Of a DNA stretch of 32,638 nucleotides, positions 2,981-25,919 are shown piece by piece. The DNA lies in assembly GCA_903839905.1 (NCBI GenBank), contig CAIMDX010000069.1, positions 1 to 32,638 on the forward strand, read 5' to 3'. The notes beneath the pieces were generated by a model. That model was given only the letters and a program-made list of their open reading frames with translations, ran no database searches and was not told the DNA's origin. Position 1 is the stretch's first letter; every line of letters begins with the position of its first letter. Position numbers and translations under genes: made by a program. The stretch comes from an uncultured bacterium. GTDB lineage: Bacteria; Patescibacteriota; Minisyncoccia; Minisyncoccales; JAQTVQ01.

Positions 2981-3151
2981 AAAAACAAAAAATCCTCAGA
3001 GGCCTGAGAATTTGCAATATGCTTTTTTATTTAACTATTTTTTGCAAACGGAAATTCCCAGACCTTGAGTTCTGCTAAAATAAAACCAAAAATTGTTTCT
3101 TGTCTGAATATTCATTATTTTTTATTTATCAAATCAATTAAGAATTGTCAA
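2981..3151 (-). promoter_or_regulatory. putative leader-peptide transcription attenuator 1
   Basis: TTGACA at 3151-3146; leader ORF 3115-3035; antiterminator GGTCTGGGAATTT (3064-3052) complementary to AAATTCTCAGGCC (3013-3001); terminator ATTCTCAG-GCCT-CTGAGGAT-TTTTTGTTTTT. Confidence 0.65.
3035..3115 (-). CDS. putative leader peptide MNIQTRNNFWFYFSRTQGLGISVCKK (26 aa)
   Basis: ATG about 7 nt after the predicted -10; ORF overlaps the antiterminator; FWFYF codon run. Confidence 0.55.
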   Translation of the reverse strand: MNIQTRNNFWFYFSRTQGLGISVCKK

Positions 3152-3179
3152 TTTTTATTTTGTTTTTCTAAAACCATAA

Positions 3180-3312
3180 AAAAGCCGAAACATTTTTAGG
3201 CATGATCCGGAGGCTGGCGCTTGGATGGAACCCCGCCTCCGCTCTTAAGAGAGCTATGGCGAGGCGAGGTCGGAGGGAATTTTAGCGCTTGCCTAAAAAT
3301 GTTTCGGCTTTT
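3180..3312. repeat. 23 bp perfect inverted repeat enclosing an 87 bp GC-rich nested palindrome
   Basis: AAAAGCCGAAACATTTTTAGGCA (3180-3202) / TGCCTAAAAATGTTTCGGCTTTT (3290-3312); inner CGCCTC...GAGGCG stem. Confidence 0.85.
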
Positions 3313-3417
3313 ATTTTCTCTGAGCCCTTGGATAAAATCGCCACAAGAGCAAAGCCGATGACTCCAAAAATATCACTTCGCAGAAAAACCCCTCTTCTTC
3401 CACTAACAATCCACAAT

Positions 3418-4884
3418 TTATCCATTGCTAATCCTCGGGAACAGCGGCGAAGATTTTTTGGATTCCAATTGATCCGCTATTGCTAAAGAAGTGCCGGGTA
3501 AAAACGGCTCTATTATTTCCCCTATTTTTTTTAAAGCAAAAAGTAAGCTTCCGACCACTTTCCGATTTTTATCAATCAGTTCCTGGCTACCCTGCTCCCA
3601 AGGTTTTTCTTTCTCAACGATCTTATTGCAATAAGCGATCAAATCCCAAATAGCGATCAAAGCTTCATTAAATTTGTATAAGCTTATTTCTTCCGAAGAT
3701 CTTGCTTCCGCTTTTATGATGGCTGTTTTTAATCCGTCATCAGAATTTCCTTCTTCCGCATTTAGCTTATTAGCCATAGCCAAAGTCCTGGCCAGCAGAT
3801 TCCCTAACCCTCCGGCTAGATCGCCATTATACCTTTGCTCAAACTTTTCCTGCGAAAAATCGCCGTCGTCCCAGCCCGGAATCTCGCGCAAAAGATAATA
3901 ACGCACGGCATCGGTGCCGTATTTATCAGCCAAAAAAATCGGATCAACCACATTGCCCAAACTTTTAGACATTTTCTGACCGTTGGAAGTGATATAGCCG
4001 TGGATGAATACTTGTTTGGAATTCGGCAATCCGGCCGACATCAGCATCGCCTGCCACATCGCGGTTTGCTGCCTTAAGTTATCTTTGCCAGCAACCTGGA
4101 TGGCATTCTTGTTTTCTTTAGTTCCCCAAAAATTGATAAATTTCTCTTCATCTTGAGGCCAGCCAAGACAGGAAACATAATTTACCAAAGCGTCAAACCA
4201 AACATACATCACATGATCATCGTCTCCGGGGACTGGTACTCCCCAAGGCATTTTATTCTTCAAACGGGAAATGCTGAAGTCCTGCAATCCTCCTTTAACA
4301 AAACTGTATATTTCTTTCTGGCGGGTCGCCGGAATCACGAATTCCGGATTGGCATCGTAAAGATCAAGCAACGGTTTTTGATATTTAGAAAAGCGGAAAA
4401 AATAATTCTCCTCTTCAATCGTTTCCAGATCTTTGTTCGGGTGGATCGGACAGCGGCCGTCAATCAGTTCCGAATCGGTTTTTTCCAGCTCGCAGCCCAC
4501 GCAATATTTAGCCTTATAGCTTGTTTTGTAAATATCGCCATTCGCTTCGCATTTTTTCCAAAACTCCTGCGCCGCTTTAATGTGATGCGGATCGGTCGTC
4601 CGGATAAAATTATTATAAGAAAGATCCAATTTCTCTTTTAACAAGCTAAACTTGGCCGCATATTCGTCGCAATAAGCCTGGGGATCTTTCTTATCGTCCA
4701 GGGCTTTCTGGTAAATTTTCAGACCGTGTTCATCCGTGCCGGTATTGAAAAAAACTTCCTTTCTTCTTTTTCTTTGGCTTCGCGCAATCGCGTCGGCCTG
4801 GACGATCTCCAAAGCAAAACCGATATGCGGCACCGCATTGACATAAGGCAAGGTCGTGGTGATATAAAAATTTTTGGAATCCAT
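3418..4884 (-). CDS. metG: methionine--tRNA ligase (short monomeric form)
   Basis: FYITTTLPYVN..PHIG, GTDEHGLKI, CxxC..CPIH knuckle, YVWFDAL, KMSKS. Confidence 0.97.
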   Translation of the reverse strand: MDSKNFYITTTLPYVNAVPHIGFALEIVQADAIARSQRKRRKEVFFNTGTDEHGLKIYQKALDDKKDPQAYCDEYAAKFSLLKEKLDLSYNNFIRTTDPHHIKAAQEFWKKCEANGDIYKTSYKAKYCVGCELEKTDSELIDGRCPIHPNKDLETIEEENYFFRFSKYQKPLLDLYDANPEFVIPATRQKEIYSFVKGGLQDFSISRLKNKMPWGVPVPGDDDHVMYVWFDALVNYVSCLGWPQDEEKFINFWGTKENKNAIQVAGKDNLRQQTAMWQAMLMSAGLPNSKQVFIHGYITSNGQKMSKSLGNVVDPIFLADKYGTDAVRYYLLREIPGWDDGDFSQEKFEQRYNGDLAGGLGNLLARTLAMANKLNAEEGNSDDGLKTAIIKAEARSSEEISLYKFNEALIAIWDLIAYCNKIVEKEKPWEQGSQELIDKNRKVVGSLLFALKKIGEIIEPFLPGTSLAIADQLESKKSSPLFPRISNG

Positions 4885-4917
4885 AATTTATAATTAGCAT
4901 AAGCTTAAGGCCTTTGC

Positions 4918-4949
4918 AAAAAAGAAAAAACCCTGCCAAAAAGACAGGG
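4918..4949 (-). terminator. intrinsic terminator of the 65 aa orphan gene
   Basis: CCCTG/CAGGG stem followed on the minus strand by a long T tract. Confidence 0.55.
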
Positions 4950-4955
4950 CATAAG

Positions 4956-5153
4956 CTAGGGCGCTTCAAAAGCGCCGGTTTCTCTGGCAAGGCGGGAAAT
5001 TTCTTCCGCCATTGCCGTTAAGATGTCATAGACATCTTTGGGATCTCTAACATCGCTGGCGCAAATAGCATTCGCTATTTGGCCGGCTTGCGCAAATTCA
5101 CGCGCTCCGACCGCAGCCAGAGCCTCTTTCTTCCTTGCTTCAATATTCTCCAT
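4956..5153 (-). CDS. small helical hypothetical protein (65 aa)
   Basis: Shine-Dalgarno-like AAAGGTGA before the ATG; own terminator; lies downstream of attenuator 2. Confidence 0.65.
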   Translation of the reverse strand: MENIEARKKEALAAVGAREFAQAGQIANAICASDVRDPKDVYDILTAMAEEISRLARETGAFEAP

Positions 5154-5204
5154 AACATCACCTTTTAACTTGTAAAAGTACTGCTTCTAAGCCAAATTCG
5201 GCCC

Positions 5205-5387
5205 AAAAACAAAAAGCCCTCTTTGCGAGGGCTATCTTTTTGATGGGTGGAATTTATTTAAAAACTATTTCCTATCCAAAAGACGGCCCTCGCAAAGAGG
5301 GATGCTAATGACGATCTGGCTCAAATTTTGCTTATTGGAATTGTACATCTTTGACTTAAAAATATCCCATTGAATGATTATTGTCAA
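5205..5387 (-). promoter_or_regulatory. putative leader-peptide transcription attenuator 2
   Basis: TTGACA(5387-5382)-N17-TATTTT(5364-5359); leader ORF 5348-5265; 31 nt antiterminator (5301-5271) complementary to 5247-5217 including 16 exact bp; terminator AGCCCTC-GCAAA-GAGGGCT-TTTTGTTTTT. Confidence 0.75.
5265..5348 (-). CDS. putative leader peptide MYNSNKQNLSQIVISIPLCEGRLLDRK (27 aa)
   Basis: ATG 10 nt after the -10; the 3' half of the ORF is the antiterminator strand; IVISI run just before it. Confidence 0.55.
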   Translation of the reverse strand: MYNSNKQNLSQIVISIPLCEGRLLDRK

Positions 5388-6097
5388 TCAATAACTTCAC
5401 CCATATCAGATTTGTCGCTTGGGCCGACGACAACCACAAATTCCCCTTTTACAACTCCTTCTTCCAGCTCTTTTATTATTTTTTCAACCGGGCCGCGATA
5501 TATTGTTTCAAATTTTTTGGTCAGCTCGCGGCAAACAACGATTTGACGGATTTTTCCGCTATTTTTTTCCAGTACGGCTATTTCTCCTAAGCTTTTTATT
5601 ATCCTGTAAGTTGACTCGTAAAAAATCACTGGATATTTTGAGGCTAAAATTTCTTCAAAATATTTTTTTCTTTTATTTTTTACCGGCGGAAACCCTAAGA
5701 ACAAAAATTTATCCATTGAAAAATCGCAGACGCTGGCCGCGGCGACCAAGGCGCAAGGCCCGGGGATGGGAATTATTTCCAGATCAGGAAAAATTTTTAA
5801 AGCCGATTCTATTAATTTGTTGCCCGGATCGGAAACTCCCGGAGTGCCTGCGTCCGAAACAAGGGCTAGATTTTTATCTTGCTTTAAAAGATCAATGATA
5901 TAGTCTATTTTTTGAATCTTGGAATGCTGGTGGTAGCTCAAAAGCGGTTTTTTAATTTCAAACCGCTCTAAGATTTTTTGAGTATTGCGCGTGTCCTCGC
6001 ACAAAATCAAATCCGCCTCGGACAATATTCTCAAAGCCCGCGCGGAAATATCTTCCAAGTTACCGATCGGCGTAGCGACGATATAAAGTTTTGGCAT
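5384..6097 (-). CDS. rsmI: 16S rRNA (cytidine1402-2'-O)-methyltransferase
   Basis: LYIVATPIGNLEDIS.RA, CEDTR, VSDAGTPGVSDPG, RELTK.FE, KGEFVVV. Start reassigned to MPKLY at 6097. Confidence 0.96.
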   Translation of the reverse strand: MPKLYIVATPIGNLEDISARALRILSEADLILCEDTRNTQKILERFEIKKPLLSYHQHSKIQKIDYIIDLLKQDKNLALVSDAGTPGVSDPGNKLIESALKIFPDLEIIPIPGPCALVAAASVCDFSMDKFLFLGFPPVKNKRKKYFEEILASKYPVIFYESTYRIIKSLGEIAVLEKNSGKIRQIVVCRELTKKFETIYRGPVEKIIKELEEGVVKGEFVVVVGPSDKSDMGEVID

Positions 6098-6098
6098 T

Positions 6099-7124
6099 TT
6101 AATTGCTTGATTCCTCTTTTTTCTTTTGCAAAAATTGCCTTGAAAATTCATAAAAAATGCCGGCCATTGGGATAACTAAAATAGCGCCCATTATTCCCCA
6201 AAGCCTGGCTCCGATAAGCAAAGAGATAATAACCAGCACCGGAGGAATGCCGATCATCTTTTTTGTGAGCAACGGGGTCAGAACATTCCCTTCAACTTGG
6301 TGGATCAGGATAAAGGCGATCAAAACCAATATCGCCGCGTTCGGTCCAGGATCTAAAAGCGTAAAAAAACCGATAAGCAACCCCGCAACCATCGGGCCGG
6401 CAATGGGAACAATGTTGCTGACTGCGGCGAAAAGAGCCAGGGTAAGGGAATATTTTATTGCAAAAACTTCCAATAATAAATAAGTAAAGACTCCCACAAA
6501 AATACAGCTTAAAACCCGGCTGCCGAACCATCCGGCAACTTTATTCTCAACGCTGGAAAAAAGAGTATAAATATACTCTTCATATTTTTTGGGAGATATC
6601 AAAAATAAGAATTTTTGGATTGATTTCTCTTCTAAGGACAAAAATATCGCGATAGTGAAAAGAGTGATCATCGTAAAAATCCCTCCAAAAAAAGTTGAAG
6701 CGGCGCTAAAAATGCTAGTTGAAGCTGTTACTAATACCCCTTGCAAATATTTATTAAAAACTTCAAAACTTTGAAGCTGATTGATATCAAAATCTTTCAA
6801 GGCAGGAGCTGCTTTCTCAAAATAAACCGGCAAAAGCTGCGAAAAATTAGTAAGCTCTTTGGAAAAAGTGTTGGCAGTAAAATAAATAAAACCGCTGACA
6901 AGAGAAAAAAACGACAAATAAATAAAAGCTGTTCCTACCACTCTTGGAACTTTTCGCTTTTGGAGGAAATCAATGACCGGGTTGAAAAGAACTGAAATGA
7001 TCAAAGAGAAAACGATCAAAGTCAAAATGTCCTGGATCAGAAAAAGGATATAAAAGAAGATCAAGGCCAGGCCAATCTTCAAAATAGACCCCCATGAAAT
7101 GTCTAAGGTGTTTCCATTGGCCAT
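6099..7124 (-). CDS. AI-2E (PerM/UPF0118) family transporter
   Basis: Multi-TM protein with LFNPVIDFLQKR, IVPIAGP, QVEGNVLTP, LWGIMGAILVIP. Confidence 0.9.
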   Translation of the reverse strand: MANGNTLDISWGSILKIGLALIFFYILFLIQDILTLIVFSLIISVLFNPVIDFLQKRKVPRVVGTAFIYLSFFSLVSGFIYFTANTFSKELTNFSQLLPVYFEKAAPALKDFDINQLQSFEVFNKYLQGVLVTASTSIFSAASTFFGGIFTMITLFTIAIFLSLEEKSIQKFLFLISPKKYEEYIYTLFSSVENKVAGWFGSRVLSCIFVGVFTYLLLEVFAIKYSLTLALFAAVSNIVPIAGPMVAGLLIGFFTLLDPGPNAAILVLIAFILIHQVEGNVLTPLLTKKMIGIPPVLVIISLLIGARLWGIMGAILVIPMAGIFYEFSRQFLQKKKEESSN

Positions 7125-7128
7125 AATT

Positions 7129-8400
7129 TTATAAATTAGAATTTAACAAATTAATAAATTCTTCTTTTTCTTTGAACGGGCCGATCAAAGCCAAATTCAA
7201 CTTCTCCGGCTTAAAAATATCCTGGGCAACCGCCAAAATTTCTTCGGCTGTTACGCTGTTAATCTTAGCAAATATATCTTCCGGAGTTAAGATTTCCCCC
7301 TCCAGTAATTCCTGGTCGGCATAGAAAGAAGCTAACGATTCGGAAGACTCCAAAGACATTGCCATCCTCCCCTTAATGATTTCTTTTGCTTTTTTCAACT
7401 CTTCAGCCGGAACTTTTTCTTGAGATATTATCTTATACTCTTTTAATATAGCGGCTATTCCTTCTCCCACTCTGGTATTATCAAGACCAATCCTGGTTAC
7501 CAAACAGCCGGTATCGGGATCCGATTCGGCGCTAGTGGACAGGTAATAAGAAAGGCCGAGTTTCTCCCTGATATTCATAAACATCCTTGAGCTGAAACCT
7601 TTACCTAAAACCACGCTTAATAAACTAAAAGCATATCTGCGGCTATCAGATATCTTATAGCCTCTTGTTCCCAACATCATATGCGCTTGATCGGTTTTCT
7701 TCTCATAAAGAGAAACCATCGGCTTATCCTGGATCTCTAAAACTTTTTCTTTCTGCGGAGCTTCTTCCTTCTTGAAGGATTTGAAATGCTCCTCCACTTT
7801 AGATAGAATATCTCTTTCGTCAATCCCGCCCGCAACGCATACCACCGTATTGGCTGGAGAATAATTTTTTTGCTTATAAGAAACTAATTTTTCTCTGTTA
7901 ATCCCGGACAAACTCTCCCTGTTCCCGATAATCGGGCGGCCGGCGGCGCAATCGCCGTAAAGGAGATCTATCCAAAGGTCTTCAATATGGATCTTGGGAT
8001 CGTCCAAATACATATTCAGTTCTTCAGTGATAACTTTCCTCTCCTTCTCTATTTCATTCTGCGGCAAAAGCGGATTCAAAAAAATATCAGCCGTAAGATC
8101 CAGCGCCAGCTCAAAATTTTCATTCCTCGCTTTGCCCCAATAACCGGTATAGTCGTAGCCCGTGAAGGCATTGGAAATTCCCCCCACCTTGTCCATGGCT
8201 TCCATTATATCTTTTTTATCCGGCCGTTTTTTACTGCCGTTAAAAACCATATGCTCCAAAAAATGCGAAATGCCATTGATCTCTTTGGGTTCGTATTTGG
8301 AACCCGTTCCGGTCAGCACTAAAACCGTCACAGTCTGGCTGTTCTCTTGAGGAGCAGCAATGATTCGCAATCCGTTGGGCAGGGTAATTTTTTTGTACAT
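7129..8400 (-). CDS. M16 (pitrilysin-like) zinc metallopeptidase
   Basis: LPNGLRI, GISHFLEHMVF (HxxEH), NAFT, SSRMF..IREKLGLSYY. Confidence 0.95.
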   Translation of the reverse strand: MYKKITLPNGLRIIAAPQENSQTVTVLVLTGTGSKYEPKEINGISHFLEHMVFNGSKKRPDKKDIMEAMDKVGGISNAFTGYDYTGYWGKARNENFELALDLTADIFLNPLLPQNEIEKERKVITEELNMYLDDPKIHIEDLWIDLLYGDCAAGRPIIGNRESLSGINREKLVSYKQKNYSPANTVVCVAGGIDERDILSKVEEHFKSFKKEEAPQKEKVLEIQDKPMVSLYEKKTDQAHMMLGTRGYKISDSRRYAFSLLSVVLGKGFSSRMFMNIREKLGLSYYLSTSAESDPDTGCLVTRIGLDNTRVGEGIAAILKEYKIISQEKVPAEELKKAKEIIKGRMAMSLESSESLASFYADQELLEGEILTPEDIFAKINSVTAEEILAVAQDIFKPEKLNLALIGPFKEKEEFINLLNSNL

Positions 8401-8410
8401 CAGTTGTTTA

Positions 8411-8573
8411 AATTTCTAATTACTAATATCTAATTAAGCCCCAATGTCCAAATCCCAAAACCCAACCAAGCCCCAAACCCTAATGACCAAATCGTTCGTT
8501 TTAGCCTGCCGGCAGGCAGGGATTTTAGAAATTGGGATTTGGTTGGTCATTGGACATTGGGATTTGGGATTTT
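8411..8573. repeat. inverted heptamer-repeat element A with central CCTGCCGGCAGGCAGG palindrome
   Basis: Left arm aagcccc aatgtcc aaatccc aaaaccc aacc aagcccc aaaccct aatgacc; right arm is an imperfect reverse complement with the same phasing. Confidence 0.85.
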
Positions 8574-11788: not shown

Positions 11789-14665
11789 TTATTTGTTTGC
11801 TGTTTCAACGGCTAGCCAAAGCTCGTCGCCGCCGATCTTTACTTTCTTTTGCAGTTTGATATTTGCATCTTCTCCGCTCAATTCTATTTTTACGGCAATC
11901 ACATCTTTAGCCAAAATTTCCTTGTTTTTTTCTAAAATTTTATTAAGAAAATCGCTCCCATTGAATTTTACCAGAATTTCGTCTTTTGGGGTAAGGCCGG
12001 CTTCTTTTCTGATCTGCTGAATCTGCCTGGCGATCTCGCGGAGGGTTCCTTCTTCTCTCAGCTCAGGAGTAAGCTTTGTATCTAACTCTATCTCCTTTTC
12101 AAACTGCTCGCAAAAAGAAACCTTTTTGACATTGACCTCTTCTTTTATCAGTTCCCAAAAAGAAACATTGCTTTGAATATTTTCCGAAGCTTTTCTAATT
12201 TTCAATTCGGCCAGTGGCTGTTTGACCTTTATTCCTGTTTCCGATCTTAAGCGCAAAGCCTCGGTAATGATATTTCTTGTCTCATCCATGTCCGCCTCCA
12301 GCTTCGTATCAATAAGGTCCTGGCTGAAAATAGGCCAATCTGACAAATGGACCGATTCTTTGTCTCCGCCAATCGTTTTATAGATATATTCTGAAATAAA
12401 AGGAGCGAACGGAGCTAAAATTTTGGCTGTCTGAAAAAGAACGAAACCGAATGTCTTGATGCCTTCAGCGTCTCCTTCCTTAAACCTGCCTCTTGATCTT
12501 CTTAAATACCAAGTTGAAAGATCATTAATAAATCCTTCAATATTCCTAGCAGCTGAAACAACATCATAGCCGTCCATTTTTTCGGTAGTTTCTTTAATAA
12601 AACGATTGAGCTTGGACAAAATCCATTTGTCTAAAATATGTCGGCTTTGAGGCAAAGAAAAATCCGCCTGCCCTTGCTGGTAAGTTTTATAAAAAGAATA
12701 AACATTCAAAAGCAACAGAATATTTTTTTGGTAGGTTTCTTTCAAATCTTTCTCGGAAAAAAACAAGTCCTCTCCCTTCATTACCAAAGAAGACATTAAA
12801 TAAAGCCTTAAAGAATCGGCGCCGTATTTTTCTATCGCTTCCCATGGATCAGGAAAATTCTTTTTAGATTTTGAAAGCTTTTCCCCTTTTTCGTTAAGAA
12901 CCGTACCGGTCGTAACAACATTTTCAAACGGAACTTTGTCAAAAAGAATGGTTGACATCACATGCATGACATAAAACCAAGCTCTGGTTTGGGCGATATA
13001 TTCGGCCACAAACTGTGCGGGTAAGCGTTTTGCGAAAGCTTCTTTGTTTTCAAAAGGATAATGCAATTCGGCAAAAGGCATTGAAGCGGATTCCACCCAG
13101 CAGTCAATTACTTCCGGAACCCTTTCCATCAAACAGCCGCAAGCGCAAGGAAAATTGACCTCGTCAACAAACGGTCTGTGCAAATCTTCTACTTTCTTGC
13201 CGCTCAATTTTTCCAGCTCGGCAATGGAACCAACGACTTCCAACTTGCCGCATTCCTTACATCTCCAAATCGGCAAGGGCGAAGCCCAATAACGATTTCT
13301 GGAAATATTCCAATCAGGCGCGGATTCCAATCCTTTTTTAAAACGGCCATATTTCAAATGCTCCGGATGCCAATTAATGTTTTCATTCAGCTCAATCAGC
13401 CGGCTTTTTATTTTTTGGATATTGATAAACCAAGCCGGAATGGCGTTGTAATACAAGGCTGTTCCGCATCTCCAGCAAAAAGGATAAGGATGCGTGGTTT
13501 TTTCCGTTTTATAAAGCAAATTTCTTTGAACCAGGTCTTTTTTAATAAATTCATCGGACTCTTTGAATTTTTTCCCTTGAATAAATTCCGGGGCTTCTTC
13601 AATAAACCTGCCTTTATTGTTCAATAACGATAAAACCGGCAAGCCGAATTTTATTCCAAGATTGTAGTCGTCTTCGCCGTAAGCCGGAGCGATATGCACG
13701 ATGCCTGTTCCATCTTCGGCCGTCACAAAATCAGCAGGCAAAACTTTATAAACTTTTGCCGCTTCTTCTTCGTTTAATTTAGCTTTATAGAGCGGCTCGT
13801 AAGACAGCCCTACCAAATCTTTTCCGCTGATTTCTTTTATTATATTTCCTTCCAAGCCGTAATTTTTCGCCCTGTTTTTGGCCAAGATAAAATATTCTTC
13901 TGCCTCTTTAACCAAAACATATATAAATTCCGGATTGACGGCCAAGGCAAGATTGGACGGCAAAGTCCAAGGAGTGGTTGTCCAGGCTAATAAAGAGGCT
14001 TTTGATAATTCCGAATCGCTGCTCTTGACCTTGAATTTAACGATCACCGATTCTTCGGTCAGCTCTTTATAGCTGTTGTCCATCGCCACCTCAAAATTGG
14101 AAAGAGGCGTTTCGCATCTTGGACAATAAAGTAAAACTTTTTTTCCTTCATAGATCAATCCTTTCTTCCAAATTTCTTTGATTGCCCACCAAACGGATTC
14201 AATATAAGAATTGTCCATCGTTTTATAGGAATTCTCAAAATCAATGAACCTGCCGATTCTTTCAATCATTTTTCCCCAATCATGCGCGTAGGTTAAAACA
14301 TTTTCGCGGCAAGTCTGGTTAAAAGTATTGATGCCGATTTCTTCAATTTGTTTTTTACCGGAAATTTTCAATTTTTCCTCAACTATATTTTCAATGGGCA
14401 GGCCGTGGCAATCCCAGCCCCAGCGGCGGGCAACAAAGCGGCCCTTCATGGTCCAATAGCGGGGCACCACATCTTTGATGGTTGAAGCTAAAATATGGCC
14501 GTAATGAGGCAGGCCAGTGGCAAACGGAGGGCCGTCGTAAAAATTAAAAACAGGGCAATTTTTTCTTTGCTCCATTGATTTTTCAAAAATTCCATTTTCC
14601 TTCCAAAATTCTATGACCTCTTTTTCCCGTTTGGAGGGATCGTTTTCACCTCCTTCAAAAACCAT
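11789..14665 (-). CDS. ileS: isoleucine--tRNA ligase, type 2 (IleRS2)
   Basis: FYDGPPFATGLPHYGH, GWDCHGLP, AWTTTPWTLPSN, GTGIVHIAP, DWNISRNRYW, KLSKS; C-terminus of IleRS2 type with no zinc finger. Confidence 0.96.
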   Translation of the reverse strand: MVFEGGENDPSKREKEVIEFWKENGIFEKSMEQRKNCPVFNFYDGPPFATGLPHYGHILASTIKDVVPRYWTMKGRFVARRWGWDCHGLPIENIVEEKLKISGKKQIEEIGINTFNQTCRENVLTYAHDWGKMIERIGRFIDFENSYKTMDNSYIESVWWAIKEIWKKGLIYEGKKVLLYCPRCETPLSNFEVAMDNSYKELTEESVIVKFKVKSSDSELSKASLLAWTTTPWTLPSNLALAVNPEFIYVLVKEAEEYFILAKNRAKNYGLEGNIIKEISGKDLVGLSYEPLYKAKLNEEEAAKVYKVLPADFVTAEDGTGIVHIAPAYGEDDYNLGIKFGLPVLSLLNNKGRFIEEAPEFIQGKKFKESDEFIKKDLVQRNLLYKTEKTTHPYPFCWRCGTALYYNAIPAWFINIQKIKSRLIELNENINWHPEHLKYGRFKKGLESAPDWNISRNRYWASPLPIWRCKECGKLEVVGSIAELEKLSGKKVEDLHRPFVDEVNFPCACGCLMERVPEVIDCWVESASMPFAELHYPFENKEAFAKRLPAQFVAEYIAQTRAWFYVMHVMSTILFDKVPFENVVTTGTVLNEKGEKLSKSKKNFPDPWEAIEKYGADSLRLYLMSSLVMKGEDLFFSEKDLKETYQKNILLLLNVYSFYKTYQQGQADFSLPQSRHILDKWILSKLNRFIKETTEKMDGYDVVSAARNIEGFINDLSTWYLRRSRGRFKEGDAEGIKTFGFVLFQTAKILAPFAPFISEYIYKTIGGDKESVHLSDWPIFSQDLIDTKLEADMDETRNIITEALRLRSETGIKVKQPLAELKIRKASENIQSNVSFWELIKEEVNVKKVSFCEQFEKEIELDTKLTPELREEGTLREIARQIQQIRKEAGLTPKDEILVKFNGSDFLNKILEKNKEILAKDVIAVKIELSGEDANIKLQKKVKIGGDELWLAVETANK

Positions 14666-18115: not shown

Positions 18116-19537
18116 TTACTTGCGAGACCTTGGCGCAAACTCAAGCCCGATAACAGTTGTGTTTACATCGTTCGACCCGCCATTGGAATCATCATATTCC
18201 ACGCTAAGAGGCCTGACTGTCCAAATAACGCCGTCCATGACAAAAAAAGCATAATCATCTTTCAGGTCATAGTTATATGTTCCTATTCTTTGCCCTGATA
18301 AATCATATTCTTTGATTTGTTTATTTTCATAAAAATAAAAGCTATTTCCGTCCTGAGAAAATATCAATTTTAAATTATATCCAGTTTTTGAAGTAGGAGA
18401 AACCGTTAAAGTAATCGTGCCAAGAGCGTTTAAATTTTGATCATATTTATAAATCTTTTTGCCGCCATCTTTGTCAAATAGTGAAAAAAGGTAAATATAG
18501 GTACCATCTGTGGCCAATGGTCCATTTTCATTCATGTCTATTGTCGCACCGTTGCCGCTTAGAGATTGAAAATTGCCAGCGCCACCGAAGCCGCCGGCGC
18601 CAGAATAGCAGCTTCCAGAATTGCCCGCATATTTTGAACGAGTAGTAGAAGAATATTTTTTGTTTCCTATAATCACGCTTCCGCAGTATCCTCCAGTGCC
18701 AGAGCCACCTTCATAAACTAAGTTCCCGAATTCATTTTTTGAAAAAACAATAGACCCTCTGGCTAATTTTTTACTAACAGGGTCCCACCCGCTTATATAC
18801 CAAGGATCGTTTCTATCCATACCGGTCCCTATTAACGATCTTTCAAGAAAGATAAAATCATTAGATGAAGAACCCCAGGTTCCTCCCGACCCGCTCCCCG
18901 CTCCGATCACTATATTATTCCAAGTCGTGGAATTGGCGCAAACAGAGTTGACGCAAAGGGCAGTGGCCGAATTGATCGTGCCCGTGGCGTTGATGTTGCC
19001 TCCGACAAAAAGGTTTCTAGTGATATTTGAATCGCCCTTGAAATATCCTGCGTACCCTCCTCCTGTGCTGTTTTGTTGCTCTGCGTATAAAGCTGAATTA
19101 GCAGAGTTGGCGTAAGCTGCGATCGCGTCGCCAGAGCTGCCAGTGCCTCCAACTGCTAATTTGGCGAGAGGCGCTGTTGTGCCAATACCGACATTGCCGG
19201 AATTGGCCTGAATGATTGTATTGGAAGTATTGCGATAGCCAAGAAAAAGACTTCCGCTTTTCACATTCAGTTCGTTAGTGTAAATACTGATGCCTCCGGC
19301 ACTGTCCACCACTAAGCCGTCAGCGCCAGCAGGAACATGAAGACTACCTCCAAGAGTCAGGCTTCCTGCCTTGGTTTGGGCTATATTGCTCGTATTGATG
19401 GGCGCATCCACGCTCGCGGGCATGGTGCCGGACGGCTCTGACCAGGCCAGGGTAAAATATCCGGCTGAAAGAGATAGAACTAAAACTGCGGCCAGAAGAG
19501 GCAAGGTTGCCGAAGAGATGTGAAAAAGTTTAGACAT
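18116..19537 (-). CDS. secreted fibre-like surface protein, paralog of 89..2143
   Basis: Near-identical signal region, one GNVGIGTTAP unit, shared SSGDAIAAYANS...CVNSVCANSTTWNNIVIGAGSG block, homologous but diverged C-terminal domain (MNENGPLATDGT.IYLFS). Confidence 0.8.
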   Translation of the reverse strand: MSKLFHISSATLPLLAAVLVLSLSAGYFTLAWSEPSGTMPASVDAPINTSNIAQTKAGSLTLGGSLHVPAGADGLVVDSAGGISIYTNELNVKSGSLFLGYRNTSNTIIQANSGNVGIGTTAPLAKLAVGGTGSSGDAIAAYANSANSALYAEQQNSTGGGYAGYFKGDSNITRNLFVGGNINATGTINSATALCVNSVCANSTTWNNIVIGAGSGSGGTWGSSSNDFIFLERSLIGTGMDRNDPWYISGWDPVSKKLARGSIVFSKNEFGNLVYEGGSGTGGYCGSVIIGNKKYSSTTRSKYAGNSGSCYSGAGGFGGAGNFQSLSGNGATIDMNENGPLATDGTYIYLFSLFDKDGGKKIYKYDQNLNALGTITLTVSPTSKTGYNLKLIFSQDGNSFYFYENKQIKEYDLSGQRIGTYNYDLKDDYAFFVMDGVIWTVRPLSVEYDDSNGGSNDVNTTVIGLEFAPRSRK

Positions 19538-20136: not shown

Positions 20137-20486
20137 GGGGGCGACTGCTTCGACAAAAAAGTTTCGTTCAAAACAAGCAAGCCGAGCATGATAGGTCTGC
20201 TCGTTAATCCGCCCTATCAAACCTATAAGTGCCAACTTATTCAAACAACCCGAATTAGCTTTAGCTTAATTCCATCCGCCAGCCTATTCTCTATAAGCTT
20301 CAGCGGGTGTCAAATTTAGAGATAGATAACTGCCTTTCCTGAAACAGTTATTGATTTGGCTCAGGATAGAAGGATCAAGATTTTGCCTGTTACATACTTG
20401 GCCCTTCAAAAATTCAAAATAGGCTAAGCTTGTAGAAAACTTTGGATGATTTTTTTGGACGGGGTTTCAATACCCCCGCCTCCACC
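20137..20486 (+). ncRNA. ssrA: tmRNA (one-piece); tag ANLFKQPELALA at 20231-20269
   Basis: 5' GGGGGCG..TTCGAC; 3' GGACGGGGTTTCAATACCCC-CGCCTCC-A; G3.U acceptor pair; ATAAGT-GCC resume context; tag ends ALA*. Confidence 0.95.
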
Positions 20487-20585
20487 CCATTAGAAATTTT
20501 AGATCAAAAAATATTCCATAAAACCATTATTCTTAGAAAAATAATAGCTTTATCAATATTTTGGAATGTAAACTTTCTAACGGGG
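20485..20585. mobile_element. MITE-like element 3 (101 bp) at the tmRNA 3' end
   Basis: TIR CCCCATTAGAAA/TTTCTAACGGGG (11/12); AT-rich self-complementary interior. Confidence 0.75.
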
Positions 20586-20640
20586 TAAAGAACCTCAATT
20601 TAGCGAATTCGCTTAAAGATGTCCCCTTTCAGCGAGAAAG

Positions 20641-21180: not shown

Positions 21181-21181
21181 T

Positions 21182-21379
21182 ATGGCAAATAAAGCAAAAA
21201 CCAGAAAATGCATCGCTAAAAGGTTTAAGGTAACCCCCACCGGAAAAATCTTAAGAAGACCAACCGGCCAAAACCATCTTCTGTCCAAAAAATCATCTCA
21301 GAAGAAAAGAAGCTTGAAGAAATGGGTTGAAGTCTCTCCCAATGAAGTTAAAAAGATAAAAAGAATTTTAAGCTACTAA
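21182..21379 (+). CDS. rpmI: 50S ribosomal protein L35
   Basis: KTRK..AKRFKVT.TGKI, H.LSKKS; position in infC operon. Confidence 0.95.
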
Positions 21380-21382
21380 AAT

Positions 21383-21727
21383 ATGGTAAGAATAAAAAGA
21401 GGCGTTGCCGCCAACAAAAGAAGAAAAAATACGATCAGCGAAGCAAAAGGATTCAAATGGGGGCGCAAATCCAAATTCAAATCAGCCAAATTGGCTTTAA
21501 TGAAAGCCCGCAGATACTCCTATCGCGACCGCAGAGTAAAGAAAAGAACCATCAGATCGTTATGGCAAACCCACATCAATTTTGCCGTTCGCGCTGAAGG
21601 GCTGTCTTACAGCAAATTCATCGCCGCATTGAAAAAAGCCAACATTGAATTAGACCGCAAGATATTGGCAGGATTCGCCGCCAAAAACCTTAAAGTCTTC
21701 AAAGCAGTCGTCGCCAAAGTAAAGTAA
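21383..21727 (+). CDS. rplT: 50S ribosomal protein L20
   Basis: [42 protein letters not shown]. Confidence 0.97.
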
Positions 21728-21742
21728 TCTATCTCATTAAAC

Positions 21743-21770
21743 AAAAAAACCGCTCAAAGCGGTTTTTTTT
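21743..21770. terminator. bidirectional intrinsic terminator
   Basis: A7-CCGCT-CAA-AGCGG-T8 between convergent genes. Confidence 0.85.
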
Positions 21771-21803
21771 GTTTTAACTAGCAATGGTCCAGTCCAATAG
21801 TCG

Positions 21804-22727
21804 CTATAATATTTTTATCTCTGGCTTGGCTGGCAGCTTATCCTGTTTTGAATATCTTATCATCAGCTCTTTTCCTTTTCCCAAAACTTCAACGGTTTGC
21901 TCTTTTGTTGCCGGAATCAAAAACCTGATCAAAATCGTTGGACCGGCAAAATTTTCCGGCTCAATCAGCAAATCTTCTGGTTTTTCCAAACTGGCCAATC
22001 GCTCCCCTTCTTTTTGATCCCTGGCTATAGCTGCAAAAAAATTATTTTCAAAAAAGATCCGGCCGTTTTTTAAAATTTGAATATCTTCTCCGCTAAAATC
22101 AGGTTTTCTTTTTAGTAATTCTCCCAGCCTCTCCGAAAATTGCGGATCGGTCAGCAAGCAGCCTCCGGCCGGCTGGGGAAAATATTCAATGCCTAATTTT
22201 TTAACCAATTCCAGCTGGCCCTTCCGGGACTTGCCTTGAAAATCAAAAAGATCCGCCCTTCTAACCAACCCCTGTTTTTCGGGAATGGTTTCCGGTAAAA
22301 GTTTGGCTGAAAGGGGCCTTAAGATAAGTCCTTCCAGCCCGGCCCCCTTCTCCATCATCTGGAAAGTATTATTATTCTGGGAAAAAGGCCTTTGGCCAAG
22401 AACCTCGCCCGTGGCAATAAAATCAGCCTTTCTCTTTTCCATCAATTCCTTGGCTTTTTTCAGCATTAAAAAATGGCAATCAACGCAAGGGTTTAAGTGC
22501 TTCCCGCGCCCATGTTCCGGTTTTTTTACCGCTTTAAGCTGATCTTCGGCAATATCAACGGTTTCTATTTCCATGCCGTTTTCTCCAGCGGTTTTTTGCG
22601 CCTGGTCACAACCAAAAAAATAGCTTTCAAAACAAACCGGAAAAACCTCAATTCCCTGATCTTTTAAGATCTTATAAGACAGAAGCGAATCCAATCCGCC
22701 GGAAAAAAGTAAAATTGCTTTAGGCAT
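21804..22727 (-). CDS. ThiI/MnmA-like PP-loop tRNA thiouridylase family protein
   Basis: SGGLDS PP-loop, NPCVDC, TGEVLGQRPFSQ, PAGGCLLTDP. Confidence 0.85.
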   Translation of the reverse strand: MPKAILLFSGGLDSLLSYKILKDQGIEVFPVCFESYFFGCDQAQKTAGENGMEIETVDIAEDQLKAVKKPEHGRGKHLNPCVDCHFLMLKKAKELMEKRKADFIATGEVLGQRPFSQNNNTFQMMEKGAGLEGLILRPLSAKLLPETIPEKQGLVRRADLFDFQGKSRKGQLELVKKLGIEYFPQPAGGCLLTDPQFSERLGELLKRKPDFSGEDIQILKNGRIFFENNFFAAIARDQKEGERLASLEKPEDLLIEPENFAGPTILIRFLIPATKEQTVEVLGKGKELMIRYSKQDKLPAKPEIKIL

Positions 22728-22752
22728 GTTCCCTCGCTCCGCTCGATCAAAA

Positions 22753-23208
22753 TCAAAATGAAAAATGATTAACGGAATTATTTATTAAATAATTATTAGC
22801 TTTGACTAAAATATTCTTGGCATTGGCAAACTTCATTTCTTTAAAAGCTTGTCCAAATGGCAGCCATTCATAACCGATATGTTCATCGGAAATTTTTATT
22901 TCTTCTTGCTCTGTTTCCGCCAAGAAAAAAGCAACTGTTTTAAAAATGGTTTTTCCTTGGACATTGAAAAAATATTTGATGGAATGCTTAAACCCAGGTA
23001 AAAAACGAATATCTTTCAGCCCGGTTTCTTCTTCTATCTCCCGACAAGCCGCAGCCATTTCCGTTTCCCCCTCTTCCAAATGACCTTTGGCAAAATCCCA
23101 ATATCCCTTGGCCTTGGGCGACGATCCAGCATAATGCAAAAGCAGATAATAAATATCCCTTCCCTCTTTTCTAAATATGACCACTCCGGCGGATTTTTCT
23201 GAAGCCAT
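22753..23208 (-). CDS. Nudix hydrolase, Ap4A hydrolase-like
   Basis: EKSAG, WDFAKGHLEEGETEMAAACREIEEETG Nudix box, ISDEH.GY.W. Confidence 0.92.
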   Translation of the reverse strand: MASEKSAGVVIFRKEGRDIYYLLLHYAGSSPKAKGYWDFAKGHLEEGETEMAAACREIEEETGLKDIRFLPGFKHSIKYFFNVQGKTIFKTVAFFLAETEQEEIKISDEHIGYEWLPFGQAFKEMKFANAKNILVKANNYLINNSVNHFSF

Positions 23209-23236
23209 AAATTCTTAATTAAATCACGGTTATTTT

Positions 23237-23358
23237 AAAGTTCAAATTTCAAAGCTCAAATGTCAAATCAAATCCAAAATCCCAAATCCAAAAAAGTTTT
23301 CGTTTTGGGCTTTGGATTTTGGGCTTTATTTGAAATTTGGATTTTGGCATTTGGATTT
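23237..23358. repeat. inverted heptamer-repeat element C
   Basis: Left arm aaagttc aaatttc aaagctc aaatgtc aaatc aaatcca aaatccc aaatcca; right arm is the inverted equivalent. Confidence 0.85.
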
Positions 23359-23369
23359 ATAAACCAATC

Positions 23370-25100
23370 CTAAAATTTCTGTTTAAAATAAATTACTAAT
23401 TCTTTTAACGACCAGGTATTAATAACATCTACTGGCTCTGCCCACCCCCTCCTTGCCTGGGCCACTCCCAGCTCCATAAAACGCATTTGGTCCTTGATGT
23501 GGCTGTCGGTATTTATCGCCATTCTTACTCCGGCTTCTTTGGCCTTCTTAATATTAATATCATTCAAGTCCAGCCTTTCCGGATAAGAGTTGATCTCCAA
23601 GGCCACATTGAATTCTTTAGCCGCCCGCAAAAGTTTGTTAAAATCCGCTTGGTATTCGTCTCGTTTTTTCAATATCCTGCCGGTTGGATGGGAAATGATT
23701 TTTATATTCGGATTTTTCATCGCTTTAATTATCCTCTCGGTCATTTGATCTTTTTCCATTTTAAAATGGGAATGCACTCCGCCGATTGCATAGTCTAATT
23801 TAGCCAAGGCTTCATCTTTGATATCAATAGAACCGTCTTTCAGAATATTAGCTTCACAGCCGTGAAGAATTTTCAATTTTAAATTTTCAATTTTCAATTT
23901 TTTATTGGTCCTGTCTATCTCAATCCTTTGCTCCAATAGCTCCTTCTCATTCAACCCATGTTCTATCGTTAGGTATTTGGTGTGGTCGGTAATGCCGGTA
24001 TATTCATAACCGAGTTCCATCGCTTTCTTAGCCATTTCTTCAATAGAGTTTTCTCCGCCGCTCCAAGTTGTATGGCAGTGCAAATCGCCCTTAATGTCTT
24101 TAAGCTCAACCAACTCCGGCAGCTTTTTTACTTGAGCTAATTCTATCTCCCCCCTATCCTCTCTTAGTTCCGGCGGGATCCAGTCCAGGCCCAAGGCGTT
24201 ATAAATGCCTTTTTCATCTTCTCCGGCGATCATCTTGGGTCCTCGAAAAAGACCGTATTCCGAAAGCTTTAATCCTTTTTCAATGGCAATCTTTCTTAAA
24301 ACAATATTATGATCCTTGGAGCCTGTAAAGTATTGCAATGCTGATCCATAGCTTCTTCTCGGTACTACCCGCAGATCCATATCAAAATCTTCTTTTAATC
24401 TTATTGAAGCTTTAGTCCCTCCCTGGCCCCAAATCTTTACTATGCCCGGCAGGCTCGTAAAAAAATTCATTACTTTTTTCGGCTGGCTTGAAACTACTAA
24501 AAAATCCACATCGCCTATGGTTTCTTTCATCCGCCTCAATGAACCGGCAAAATCAACTTGCTCAACTTCTTTGATGCTTTTTAACTTGCCATAAACCTCT
24601 TGGGCTTTGGGCAATATCTCCCCCAACAAAAATCTTCCCTTGGACCTTTTTAAAAATTCTATGCCTTGAAGAATATTCGCTTGGGCTTTGGGCCCGAAGC
24701 CGAATAATCCGGCGATCTTGTTTTGCTTGGCCGCTTTCTCTAATTCTTTAAGGTTAGTAATGCCTAATTTCTGAAAAAGATATCTGGCCCGCTTCGGGCC
24801 CATCCCTTCAACCGCGATCATCTCTTCCATCTTGATTGGCAATTTCCTTTTCAGCTCGCTGTAATATTTTATCTTGCCGGTTTTGATATACTCCTCTATT
24901 TTTTGGGCAATGCTATCGCCCACGCTTGGAATCTCTCCCAAAGCCTTCAATCCGCCTTTTTTATAAATATCAGCCACATTTTGCTCTAAAGCGTCAACCG
25001 TAATAGCCGCATTTTTATAAGCATACGGCTTGAACGGCACTTCCTCGCTTTCCAAAAAATCGCCTATCTCATATAAAATTTTTGCAATTTCTTGATTCAT
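23370..25100 (-). CDS. polX: DNA polymerase X with PHP 3'-5' exonuclease domain
   Basis: HhH motifs, AGSLRR.KETIGDVD (DxD intact), DLR, YFTGSK.HN; PHP DLHCHT, TDH, HPTGR, TDSH. Confidence 0.96.
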   Translation of the reverse strand: MNQEIAKILYEIGDFLESEEVPFKPYAYKNAAITVDALEQNVADIYKKGGLKALGEIPSVGDSIAQKIEEYIKTGKIKYYSELKRKLPIKMEEMIAVEGMGPKRARYLFQKLGITNLKELEKAAKQNKIAGLFGFGPKAQANILQGIEFLKRSKGRFLLGEILPKAQEVYGKLKSIKEVEQVDFAGSLRRMKETIGDVDFLVVSSQPKKVMNFFTSLPGIVKIWGQGGTKASIRLKEDFDMDLRVVPRRSYGSALQYFTGSKDHNIVLRKIAIEKGLKLSEYGLFRGPKMIAGEDEKGIYNALGLDWIPPELREDRGEIELAQVKKLPELVELKDIKGDLHCHTTWSGGENSIEEMAKKAMELGYEYTGITDHTKYLTIEHGLNEKELLEQRIEIDRTNKKLKIENLKLKILHGCEANILKDGSIDIKDEALAKLDYAIGGVHSHFKMEKDQMTERIIKAMKNPNIKIISHPTGRILKKRDEYQADFNKLLRAAKEFNVALEINSYPERLDLNDINIKKAKEAGVRMAINTDSHIKDQMRFMELGVAQARRGWAEPVDVINTWSLKELVIYFKQKF

Positions 25101-25153
25101 TTCTTCTGTTGCCTTATTCTAAGCTAAAAACAAAGGACGGTCCATTGAAAAAC

Positions 25154-25183
25154 CAAAGGGGATGCTAGATAGCATCCCCTTTG
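25154..25183. terminator. terminator-like 14 bp perfect inverted repeat after greA
   Basis: CAAAGGGGATGCTA-GA-TAGCATCCCCTTTG with T runs on both strands. Confidence 0.7.
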
Positions 25184-25203
25184 ATTTTTGATCTGGCCAA
25201 TGG

Positions 25204-25692
25204 CTAAGCTTCTCCTTGGGAGACCTTTAATACTTTATAAACAAAATTTGGCTGATTTTTTACAGCAACCGCTTCTCCTATTTTCCGGCCCAGTAATGCC
25301 TGGCCAACCGGCGACTCGTTAGATATTCTTCCTTCAAAAGGATTGGCTTCCAGCGTTCCGACTATAGTAAAACTGGTCTTATTTCCCGAATTGTCCTGCA
25401 AAAAAACTTTTGATCCCAAATAAACTGTTTCTTTGTCTTCTTTCGGCGGCATTATTATCTCATAGTTCTTCAAAACCGTATCCAGCTCCTGAAGCTTGGT
25501 TTCAAGCATCTCCATATCCTCCTGAAACGACAAATATTCCGAGTCAATATCTTCCGATTGCAAAACCTTGGGAACATCTCCCCTAGTCTTGGCCAGCCTT
25601 ATTTTTTTTAATTCCTCAAACTCCTTCTTAATTTTGGATAAACCTTCGCGAGTTAAATAAAATTTTTGATCTTGAAGCATTGTTGTTGCCAT
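25204..25692 (-). CDS. greA: GreA/GreB family transcription elongation factor (divergent tip)
   Basis: YLTREGL.K.K.E.E.LK, SEY, V.LGSKV, IVG..EANP..G.ISNESPVG.ALLG. Start likely MATTM at 25692. Confidence 0.85.
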   Translation of the reverse strand: MATTMLQDQKFYLTREGLSKIKKEFEELKKIRLAKTRGDVPKVLQSEDIDSEYLSFQEDMEMLETKLQELDTVLKNYEIIMPPKEDKETVYLGSKVFLQDNSGNKTSFTIVGTLEANPFEGRISNESPVGQALLGRKIGEAVAVKNQPNFVYKVLKVSQGEA

Positions 25693-25698
25693 ATATAT

Positions 25699-25919
25699 AA
25701 AAAATCCCTTCTGGGGCAAGGGAGTTAGCTTTTATTATTTATTCCTGATTGTGTTTAAGTTTGTTCTACGAGCTTTTCCCTTACCTTAGAAGTGTGGTCC
25801 TTGACCGCAAATAAAAAGTTTGCCGGCAAGTTTAGCGGTAATGGATTGCTTCATTCTGTTTTGGACATTCAGCATATTCATCGTGAATTAATAATAAGCT
25901 CGGCCCCAGCCTTTGTCAA
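25699..25919 (-). promoter_or_regulatory. putative leader-peptide attenuator 3 (greA leader)
   Basis: TTGACA(25919-25914)-N17-TATTAT(25896-25891); leader ORF 25881-25786; antiterminator TTCTAAGGTAAGGGA (25791-25777) versus TCCCTTGCCCCAGAA; terminator TCCCTT-GCCCCAG-AAGGGA-TTTTTT. Confidence 0.7.
25786..25881 (-). CDS. putative leader peptide MNMLNVQNRMKQSITAKLAGKLFICGQGPHF (31 aa)
   Basis: ATG 9 nt after the -10; stop codon lies inside the antiterminator. Confidence 0.5.
   Translation of the reverse strand: MNMLNVQNRMKQSITAKLAGKLFICGQGPHF

Follow-up and report, generated by a model that had tools for sequence, protein, structure and literature searches.

Putative leader-peptide attenuators upstream of greA and of orphan genes in a patescibacterial genome

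Leader-peptide attenuators are known from enterobacteria, where trp, his, phe, thr, leu and ilv are the classical cases. The Patescibacteria (candidate phyla radiation, CPR) combine tiny genomes with few known regulators, and to our knowledge their gene regulation is mostly uncharted. In Proteobacteria, bacilli and Clostridia, genes of the greA/rnk type are prone to 5' attenuators that include an antiterminator (PMC2965389, Naville & Gautheret 2010), and autoregulation of E. coli GreA needs the leader GraL in cis, an effect observed in vivo only (PMC6829880, Potrykus et al.). Here, we describe a 32,638-nt stretch of DNA from an uncultured patescibacterium (GenBank assembly GCA_903839905.1, contig CAIMDX010000069.1; hereafter the window), which is contig C69 of a genome (G000) of 779 kb with 41% G+C and 94.5% completeness. 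Three loci on the window's minus strand, L1, L2 and L3, precede a 172-aa orphan gene, a 65-aa orphan gene and the transcript cleavage factor gene greA, respectively, and are likely ribosome-mediated transcription attenuators.

The initial annotation of this DNA had described one common layout for the three loci, and this description holds. Read on the minus strand, each of them shows a TTGACA-N17 promoter, an ATG located 7 (L1), 10 (L2) or 9 nt (L3) past the -10 hexamer, a short open reading frame (ORF) of 26, 27 and 31 codons, respectively, a strand, in the ORF or near its stop, that complements the 5' arm of a hairpin farther on, this terminator-like hairpin itself with its T tract (3013-2990, 5233-5215 and 25723-25705) and finally the gene. 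Relative to the antiterminator strand, the leader stop codon lies at +27 in L1 and at +34 in L2, and it falls inside the strand in L3; a terminating ribosome would hence be expected to mask the strand. The minimum free energy (MFE) fold of the free leader is the antiterminator at L1, L2 and L3 (z = -2.9, -6.1 and -2.55), with 3, 0 and 4 out of 200 shuffles folding as well as the native sequence, while the antiterminator duplex itself yields p values of 0.006, <0.001 and 0.07 (1000 shuffles). A tail shared by L1 and L2 had also been reported, and the corresponding 15-mer TTTTTGTTTTTRGGC indeed occurs solely at these two loci in the 779-kb genome. Two features of the peptides fared less well. 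The late cysteine ascribed to all three is not conserved, as the G001 ortholog of the L1 leader ends ahead of it, and the Asn/Gln-rich starts, which are present, are not special to the three loci but reflect Asn/Gln/Lys-rich starts that are general among these leaders and for which A-rich 5' ends could account. Searches for paralogs within the same genome with the three leaders and their peptides (blastn/tblastn) returned self-matches only.

At L3, the promoter (25891..25919, minus strand; TTGACA 25919-25914, 17-nt spacer, -10 TATTAT 25896-25891) reaches 11/12 matches. It is followed by the leader ORF MNMLNVQNRMKQSITAKLAGKLFICGQGPHF (25786..25881, minus strand; ATG 25881, 31 codons, TAA 25788-25786), by the antiterminator strand CTTCTAAGGTAAGGGAAAAGCT (25771..25792, minus strand), which contains the leader stop codon and is paired in the MFE fold, and by the intrinsic terminator TCCCTTGCCCCAGAAGGGA (25699..25723, minus strand), which together with a T6 tract ends 6 nt ahead of the greA ATG. 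The greA gene (25204..25692, minus strand) encodes 162 aa with Pfam matches to GreA_GreB and GreA_GreB_N; the gene identities at the three loci come from Pfam. Within the five genomes of the genus (G000-G004, with G000 being the window's own genome), orthologs of the L3 ORF are present in G001, G002 and G004. Across the order, greA orthologs were found in 143/201 sampled genomes (E <= 1e-25), and 110 greA upstream regions (30 + 80 fetched) were analysed. A stable hairpin ends within 75 nt of the greA ATG in 82 of the 110 regions, and in 59 an upstream complement to the hairpin 5' arm lies 5-70 nt away (p <= 0.05, from 200 dinucleotide shuffles). In 58 of the 59 leaders, an ATG-initiated ORF has its stop between -10 and +33 nt relative to the strand start, and fixed criteria (ORF of 24-60 codons, stop at -12 to +36 nt of the strand) are passed by 56, compared to 5.9 +/- 2.4 leaders in shuffles (maximum 13 in 200) and 0 on the opposite strand.

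The promoters of the greA leaders score at least 10/12 in 50 of 56 cases, and by count 24 of them show a perfect TTGACA-N16-TATAAT; a Shine-Dalgarno-like motif is found in 8/56. Two classes of leader stop can be distinguished, one located at the strand (mostly TGA) and one about 30 nt past it, in which the strand is translated as G-R-F-S followed by a basic tail. The MFE fold of the free leader is the antiterminator in 32 greA leaders and the terminator in 24. By reading, some other greA regions of the order have a promoter directly ahead of greA and no leader, and 39 regions upstream of greA-like genes in other orders of the phylum yielded 19 hairpins, 1 significant complement and 0 cases with an ORF. 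Judged by these comparisons, L3 belongs to an order-wide greA leader family, and we consider it highly probable that it is an attenuator of the kind described here. Most genomes of the order carry two GreA-family genes; the second paralog of the window's own genome lies on another contig (C44:4916-5356, plus strand) and is 32% identical to the window GreA.

The two alternative helices could be followed in a MAFFT alignment of 61 greA leaders (A1), which was built from the sequences only. Its 13 antiterminator pairs are paired in 80.2% of cases, compared to 67.5 +/- 1.0 in shuffles (0/500 reach the native value), changes on both sides are seen at 13/13 pairs, and compensatory cells amount to 120 as opposed to 52 +/- 8. 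The covariation score is 0.428 compared to 0.220 in shuffles, again with 0/500 reaching it, while slid controls arrive at 56% paired and a score of 0.167 at most. The pairs of the terminator helix show the same covariation behaviour. Thus, covariation in orthologous leaders, which the initial annotation had proposed to look for, is found between antiterminator and terminator, and both the leader ORF and the pairing are conserved in relatives. Together with the lack of selection on the peptide and the cognate codon runs in sister leaders described below, this supports the logic of ribosome-mediated attenuation which that annotation had put forward.

A covariance model (R1) derived from A1 matches 86/101 genomes of the order (E <= 0.01), often at 2-6 places each. 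Sixty non-greA matches, comprising the 20 strongest and 40 others among the matches listed, were fetched. Of these, 28 show a promoter, a short ORF, an antiterminator and a terminator; the others resemble plain 3' terminators. Many of the short ORFs carry runs of codons that fit the gene downstream. MetE is preceded by the Met run VVMGMVM (L245), cysteine synthase by the Cys runs ACCDCC, CCVCCC and SCCCPCC (L252, L261 and L272), ADH synthase by the Phe/Tyr runs FYFGFF and FFFNFYFF (L254 and L259) and DAHP synthase by FYFYFAFF (L258). Thr runs (TTTSTTT and TTTTTT) occur in the very short leaders MNFNNSTTTSTTTSF and MKHIKGNPTTTTTTS directly ahead of thrS, the gene of ThrRS, in two different families of the order (L277 in G085 and L287 in G073). 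The leader MAKTMNLINILVLVLLVVVQPRRLVRFIKS with the Leu/Val run ILVLVLLVVV (L273, G040:C15) precedes a Clp_N/AAA ATPase (ClpB/ClpC-like), which is a non-biosynthetic target, as greA is. Ile runs are found in L253 ahead of a fragment with a weak citramalate-synthase match below cut-off, and L289, a candidate His-type leader, has three His and a downstream gene with a weak Pribosyltran match, likewise below cut-off. The agreement between cognate runs and downstream genes provides indirect evidence that ribosomes read the leader ORFs.

The L1 promoter (3123..3151, minus strand) consists of TTGACA at 3151-3146, a 17-nt spacer and the -10 hexamer TAAATA at 3128-3123, which is without the usual final T and has a TGn directly ahead; TTGACA and the -10 block are kept in 5/5 genus genomes. 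The leader ORF MNIQTRNNFWFYFSRTQGLGISVCKK (3035..3115, minus strand; ATG 3115, 26 codons, TAG 3037-3035) contains the aromatic codon run FWFYF at 3091-3077. Its antiterminator strand GGTCTGGGAATTT (3052..3064, minus strand) pairs in the MFE fold with the 5' arm AAATTCTCAGGCC of the intrinsic terminator (2981..3013, minus strand), whose stem AAATTCTCAGGCC/TCTGAGGATTT is followed by a T tract. The 172-aa gene downstream (2328..2846, minus strand) has no Pfam family match and is genus-specific, being present in 5/5 genus genomes and in 0/196 other genomes of the order; an AlphaFold2 model of the protein has a pLDDT of 68, and Foldseek found no match to it in the PDB at E <= 0.001. In all five genus genomes an L1-type leader precedes the ortholog of this gene, also in G003 and G004, where the pair sits elsewhere in the genome. 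The length of the leader ORF varies between 23 and 27 codons, with an in-frame indel in G001, and the 12-mer GTCTGGGAATTT of the strand is invariant in 5/5 orthologous leaders, though the reading frame over it differs. Likewise, the terminator 5' arm AAATTCTC is invariant in the five-way alignment while the loop is variable, and by reading of the sequences one compensatory pair change is seen (GGTCT:AGGCC in G000, TGTCT:AGACA in G003). On this basis, L1 is likely to be an attenuator of this kind.

The FWFYF run of L1, which is kept in G000, G001 and G002, sits where sister leaders carry cognate runs, and L1 is for this reason most likely an aromatic-codon leader that would sense charged Phe or aromatic tRNA. 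Two tandem L1-type aromatic leaders, METQTSRINFWFYFYGQTPQSLGI and MNSQRNYYWFYFYFGPIHYLGIFHL, with the runs NFWFYFY and YYWFYFYF, are found in a genome of another family (L278; G082:C1:94447-95723, minus strand); the second one has the strand and arm sequences TCTGGGAATTT / AAATTCTC as in L1, and the pair lies upstream of an ORF. The Rfam family Phe_leader (RF01859) aligns over its full length with L1 (2984-3112, minus strand) at 27.5 bits, which is below the gathering score of 55. The alignment places the U-rich Phe codons on Phe codons and the terminator on the terminator, but many model pairs are unformed in L1, and we take the resemblance as analogy and not as membership.

Two further observations concern the surroundings of L1. 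Between metG and the L1 promoter lies a GC-rich hairpin-like element of about 110 nt (window 3190-3300) with the inverted ends CATTTTTAGGCA / TGCCTAAAAATG. Compared with G000 and G003, G002 carries this element in the opposite orientation; its interior differs in G000, and G001 lacks it. A search against Rfam gave no match, and with respect to a possible invertible element the DNA contigs of four sequencing runs show the window orientation only. Just downstream of the L1-controlled 172-aa gene, a protein of 684 aa without Pfam match is encoded (89-2143, minus strand), which is paralogous to a 473-aa protein (18116-19537, minus strand; about 49% identity across 400 residues), with another partial copy on contig C20.

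The L2 promoter (5359..5387, minus strand; TTGACA 5387-5382, 17-nt spacer, -10 TATTTT 5364-5359) overlaps with the stop codon of the TP_methylase (rsmI-like) gene that lies upstream. Its leader ORF MYNSNKQNLSQIVISIPLCEGRLLDRK (5265..5348, minus strand; ATG 5348, 27 codons, TAG 5267-5265) has an I-V-I-S-I run just ahead of the antiterminator strand CCCTCTTTGCGAGGGC (5286..5301, minus strand), which is an exact 16-nt reverse complement of 5232-5217. This is the strongest alternative pairing among the three loci, with a free-leader MFE of -47.7 kcal/mol. The intrinsic terminator AGCCCTCGCAAAGAGGGCT (5205..5233, minus strand) and its T tract are followed by the 65-aa orphan (4956..5153, minus strand), which has no Pfam match and its own terminator at 4950-4930; metG comes next. 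The orphan is found in 1/5 genus genomes, namely G000, whereas in G001-G004 the rsmI-like gene is directly followed by metG and L2 and the orphan are missing. Together, L2 and its orphan make up a lineage-specific, recent insertion of about 470 nt. Comparable modules with I/L/V-rich ORFs and their own strand-terminator pairs (p < 0.001) occur after metG in G003 and G004. Overall, we lean slightly towards regarding L2 as an attenuator of this kind. Downstream of metG, after short-ORF modules, G004 and G003 also carry a conserved, apparently non-coding element containing GTCTAACCTTGGGCGATCCCACACCAGG, in two copies in L034 (G004:C33) and in one in L032 (G003:C58); an Rfam search of the relatives' loci L031, L032 and L034 gave no match.

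Within the window's own genome, R1 ranks L3 first, a cysK leader second (28 bits), L2 fifth (23.4 bits) and L1 seventh. The cysK leader (contig C74, about 13750-14050, plus strand) comprises a TTGACG promoter, a 38-codon ORF MNKQINQIISCCCACCSSCKKEVNLLGPLAGCKLEDSF with a stretch of 9 residues that includes 6 Cys, an antiterminator with its terminator and the cysteine synthase gene, the product of which is 45-52% identical to the enzymes of relatives; by reading, the ATG lies 6 nt past the best -10-like hexamer, TATTTT. The remaining top matches are ordinary terminators, bar one ambiguous case on contig C27 (about 8050-8215, minus strand; 21.3 bits), where a 36-codon ORF MLSDKKSKRNFKIIWIVLVVLIAVSTILSLIAPAFR precedes a terminator and which is a candidate for either a fifth leader or a small membrane protein. 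The genome-wide regulon that the initial annotation had envisaged is not borne out: R1 ranks about four to five real leaders, and the scan of the genome for promoter, short ORF and terminator that had been suggested gave no excess, with 21 candidates compared to 27 in the shuffled control. The accompanying view of an organism that lacks amino-acid biosynthesis and whose leaders avoid biosynthetic genes is wrong in part, since a poly-Cys leader stands ahead of the genome's own cysteine synthase and leaders of relatives precede biosynthetic genes; with the queries used, neither metE nor genes for DAHP or ADH synthase turned up in this genome.

Three other explanations of the short ORFs have to be weighed against attenuation. 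They could be free-standing genes for small proteins, i.e. membrane or type-I-toxin-like peptides, that merely lie upstream of greA or the orphans. Every unit does have a promoter, an ORF and a terminator of its own, some peptides resemble single transmembrane helices, such as a 49-aa peptide after metG in G004 and the C27 candidate, and bona fide leaderless genes exist in the same genome. However, in ten homologous pairs of leader ORFs the first, second and third codon positions show 79, 75 and 77 changes, respectively; with changes so evenly spread, the peptide sequence is not under purifying selection. The conserved antiterminator strand is moreover read in differing frames, the stop tracks this strand and not the length of the peptide, the pairing with the terminator 5' arm covaries, and the codon runs fit the downstream enzyme. 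In most genomes the greA ATG lies 6-25 nt past the T tract, which leaves no room for a promoter. Small-protein genes are thus an improbable explanation.

Attenuation might instead be RNA-only or protein-mediated, with GreA or another factor acting in a GraL-like manner on the leader RNA or on the polymerase and the ORF being incidental. Precedents are the 5' attenuators of greA/rnk genes in Proteobacteria, bacilli and Clostridia, for which no ORF is noted (PMC2965389), and the requirement for GraL in cis in E. coli (PMC6829880). The occurrence of an ORF in 56/59 greA leaders against the 5.9 expected, with none on the opposite strand, the position of the leader stop at the antiterminator strand and the recurrence of the same RNA architecture, with cognate runs, ahead of amino-acid genes speak against an incidental ORF, and make this second explanation quite improbable; GreA input on top of ribosome sensing is possible. 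As a third option, promoter-like sites, short open frames and terminators might have come together at the three loci by chance, the genome being AT-rich. Chance would fit the near-chance rate (15/71) of ATGs 3-14 nt past strict promoter matches, the fact that at 41% G+C an ORF of 26-31 codons is no rarity and the parity of the pattern scan with its control, but it is very improbable in view of folds and duplexes that beat shuffles at single loci, of L1, L2 and L3 being the only intergenic cases with a TTGACA promoter among the 21 scan candidates, of the conservation of L1 and L3 in relatives and of the ranks that R1, trained on greA leaders of other genomes, assigns to L2 and L1.

Ribosome-mediated attenuation is therefore the preferred reading, and the following points weigh against it. 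The rows of A1 were preselected for some upstream complement, and the related greA leaders in it are not independent. The E-values of R1, which was trained on greA leaders only, are rough, and the assignment of 28 of the 60 fetched matches as leaders was made by eye. The L3 antiterminator is marginal when taken by itself (p = 0.07), as are greA leaders of its own genus (p = 0.06-0.09), and its support therefore comes from the greA leader family; L2 has no orthologs among the genus genomes and thus no comparative support. As to the sensed signal, the greA leaders have no single-residue run, the commonest maximum being 3 identical residues in 9, and G003 and G004 carry Ser-rich runs in place of the aromatic run of L1, with the pyrimidine tract conserved, which weakens the case for Phe sensing in the whole L1 family. 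The pattern scan of the own genome not only showed no excess over the shuffled control but also failed to pick up the cysK leader, owing to a stop that lies about 50 nt past the strand; the scan was not used as evidence of absence. Finally, the evidence for attenuation comes entirely from comparing sequences: for all leaders, translation, transcript 3' ends at the hairpins, regulation and the sensed signal are predicted from the observed anatomy, covariation, ORF conservation and cognate-run relatives. A search of sequencing runs found the stretch in five lake or freshwater DNA runs and in none of the RNA runs.

Based on these data, we propose the following mechanism. A strong sigma-70-type promoter would give rise to a leaderless or nearly leaderless RNA, and the short ORF at its 5' start would be translated. 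The last part of the ORF, or the bases around its stop, can pair with the 5' arm of a terminator located 20-55 nt downstream. When the first ribosome is at or near the leader stop, it would cover this strand, the terminator hairpin would form and transcription would end ahead of the gene. A ribosome that arrives late or halts a few codons short of this point, or no ribosome at all, would allow the antiterminator to form and RNA polymerase to read into the gene. Such a system would be a two-state switch in which folding order and masking by the ribosome set the outcome, as no anti-antiterminator strand was found: a helix of this type (region 1:2) reaches p <= 0.05 in 5/56 greA leaders, with a median z of -0.07. 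Without an anti-antiterminator, an untranslated leader should also read through, and stalling, to which the initial annotation had attributed read-through, would not be needed for it. Translation of the leader ORFs from leaderless RNA is plausible because two genes of the same genome start 7-8 nt after a consensus -10, namely a 238-aa gene in the window (31630-32384, minus strand; TTGACA-N18-TAGAAT, ATG 32346) and rpmH, encoding ribosomal protein L34 (contig C51, about 5640-5810, plus strand).

What the greA leader would sense can be approached from its codon composition. Codons -13 to -6 ahead of the strand are I, L, V, F or T in 60.5% of cases, compared to 38.9 +/- 2.1 upon within-peptide permutation (0/1000 reach this value), and by reading this block occupies about the same position as the cognate runs of the specific leaders. 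The best reading is that the greA leader would respond to the speed of translation, as either a multivalent or a general sensor, and would raise GreA when ribosomes trail RNA polymerase. That it senses transcription-translation coupling as such, and not one amino acid, is a tentative idea that we consider possible but doubtful. Under coupling control, formation of the terminator would require the first ribosome to sit at the leader stop just as the polymerase makes the hairpin. A ribosome that lags because one of several hydrophobic amino acids runs short, or because of general translation stress, would lead to more GreA, and a slow, backtracked polymerase resulting from too little GreA would likewise free the strand and raise GreA. 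An extra GreA-dependent input via polymerase speed, paralleling E. coli, is possible. If a coupling sensor exists, one order of Patescibacteria would have a homeostat in place for the very factor by which uncoupled polymerases are rescued, and the ribosome would be the kind of in-vivo-only accessory factor that is missing from the GreA/GraL loop of E. coli. The idea that greA attenuation substitutes for a missing stringent response was rejected, given that the genome has ORFs with a RelA_SpoT domain and with a DksA/TraR-type zinc finger.

With respect to other RNA elements, a tmRNA gene (20137-20487, plus strand; RF00023, 131.7 bits) is the sole Rfam match at gathering score in the window. In the region 25600-26050, further Rfam matches lie upstream of the L3 leader only, over the atpC terminator, and the L3 leader itself (25699-25881) matches no family at gathering score or at E <= 1, so that no homology in sequence or structure to the enterobacterial or bacillar greA leaders on record was seen; whether GraL has an Rfam entry of its own was not verified.

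The comparisons above suggest that, in one large order of Patescibacteria, several genes in each genome are under leader-peptide attenuation of the textbook type. Since many of the leaders have near-consensus promoters and leaderless or Shine-Dalgarno-less short ORFs, gene callers will miss them; covariance models can annotate such leaders, and the codon runs would then tell which amino acid a genome monitors. The leaders also give handles on orphan genes, e.g. the 172-aa protein behind the aromatic-codon leader. In the case of greA, an elongation factor would be under attenuation, and the hypothesis that the level of GreA depends on how far the ribosome lags behind the polymerase becomes testable.

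Our literature search, which covered papers without their supplementary files, found no attenuators in Patescibacteria/CPR and no greA leader peptide. The mechanism is a textbook one, and attenuators are apparently undescribed for Patescibacteria. In GraL and the predicted greA/rnk leaders, as in L3, the 5' leader of greA contains both an antiterminator and an intrinsic terminator (PMC2965389), and GraL, as L3 would, implies a feedback-type control of a factor with a tuned level (PMC6829880). Unlike the leaders described here, in which an ORF of 24-50 codons is conserved order-wide, GraL has just 19 nt ahead of its terminator, and no ORF is described for it. The polycysteine leaderless short ORFs of mycobacteria, which are reported as Cys-responsive attenuators of downstream genes, resemble the cysK leader of the window's own genome, a Cys-rich and apparently leaderless ORF predicted to act alike; what sets our case apart from them are the intrinsic terminator, the covarying antiterminator and the other phylum (bioRxiv 10.1101/834739). 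In the antibiotic-responsive upstream ORFs of vmlR and msrD, a stalled ribosome frees an antiterminator and slowed translation is the signal, as proposed here, whereas their targets are resistance genes and ours are greA, housekeeping or orphan genes (PMC9226507, msrD preprint). With the classical enterobacterial attenuators, the loci share a promoter-proximal short ORF whose stop lies beside the antiterminator strand and mutually exclusive antiterminator and terminator helices; runs of cognate codons, also typical of the classical cases, are seen as Met, Cys, Phe/Tyr and Thr runs in relatives and may be represented by FWFYF in L1, while the greA leaders have the mixed I/L/V/F/T block (PMC1183508). 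The loci differ from the trp type, in which a 1:2 helix super-attenuates the untranslated leader, in that the patescibacterial leaders are predicted to read through when untranslated, and from the classical attenuators in general in that many leaders of this order are leaderless or without a Shine-Dalgarno sequence and in that the targets, in a patescibacterial lineage, include greA, thrS, a Clp ATPase and orphans.

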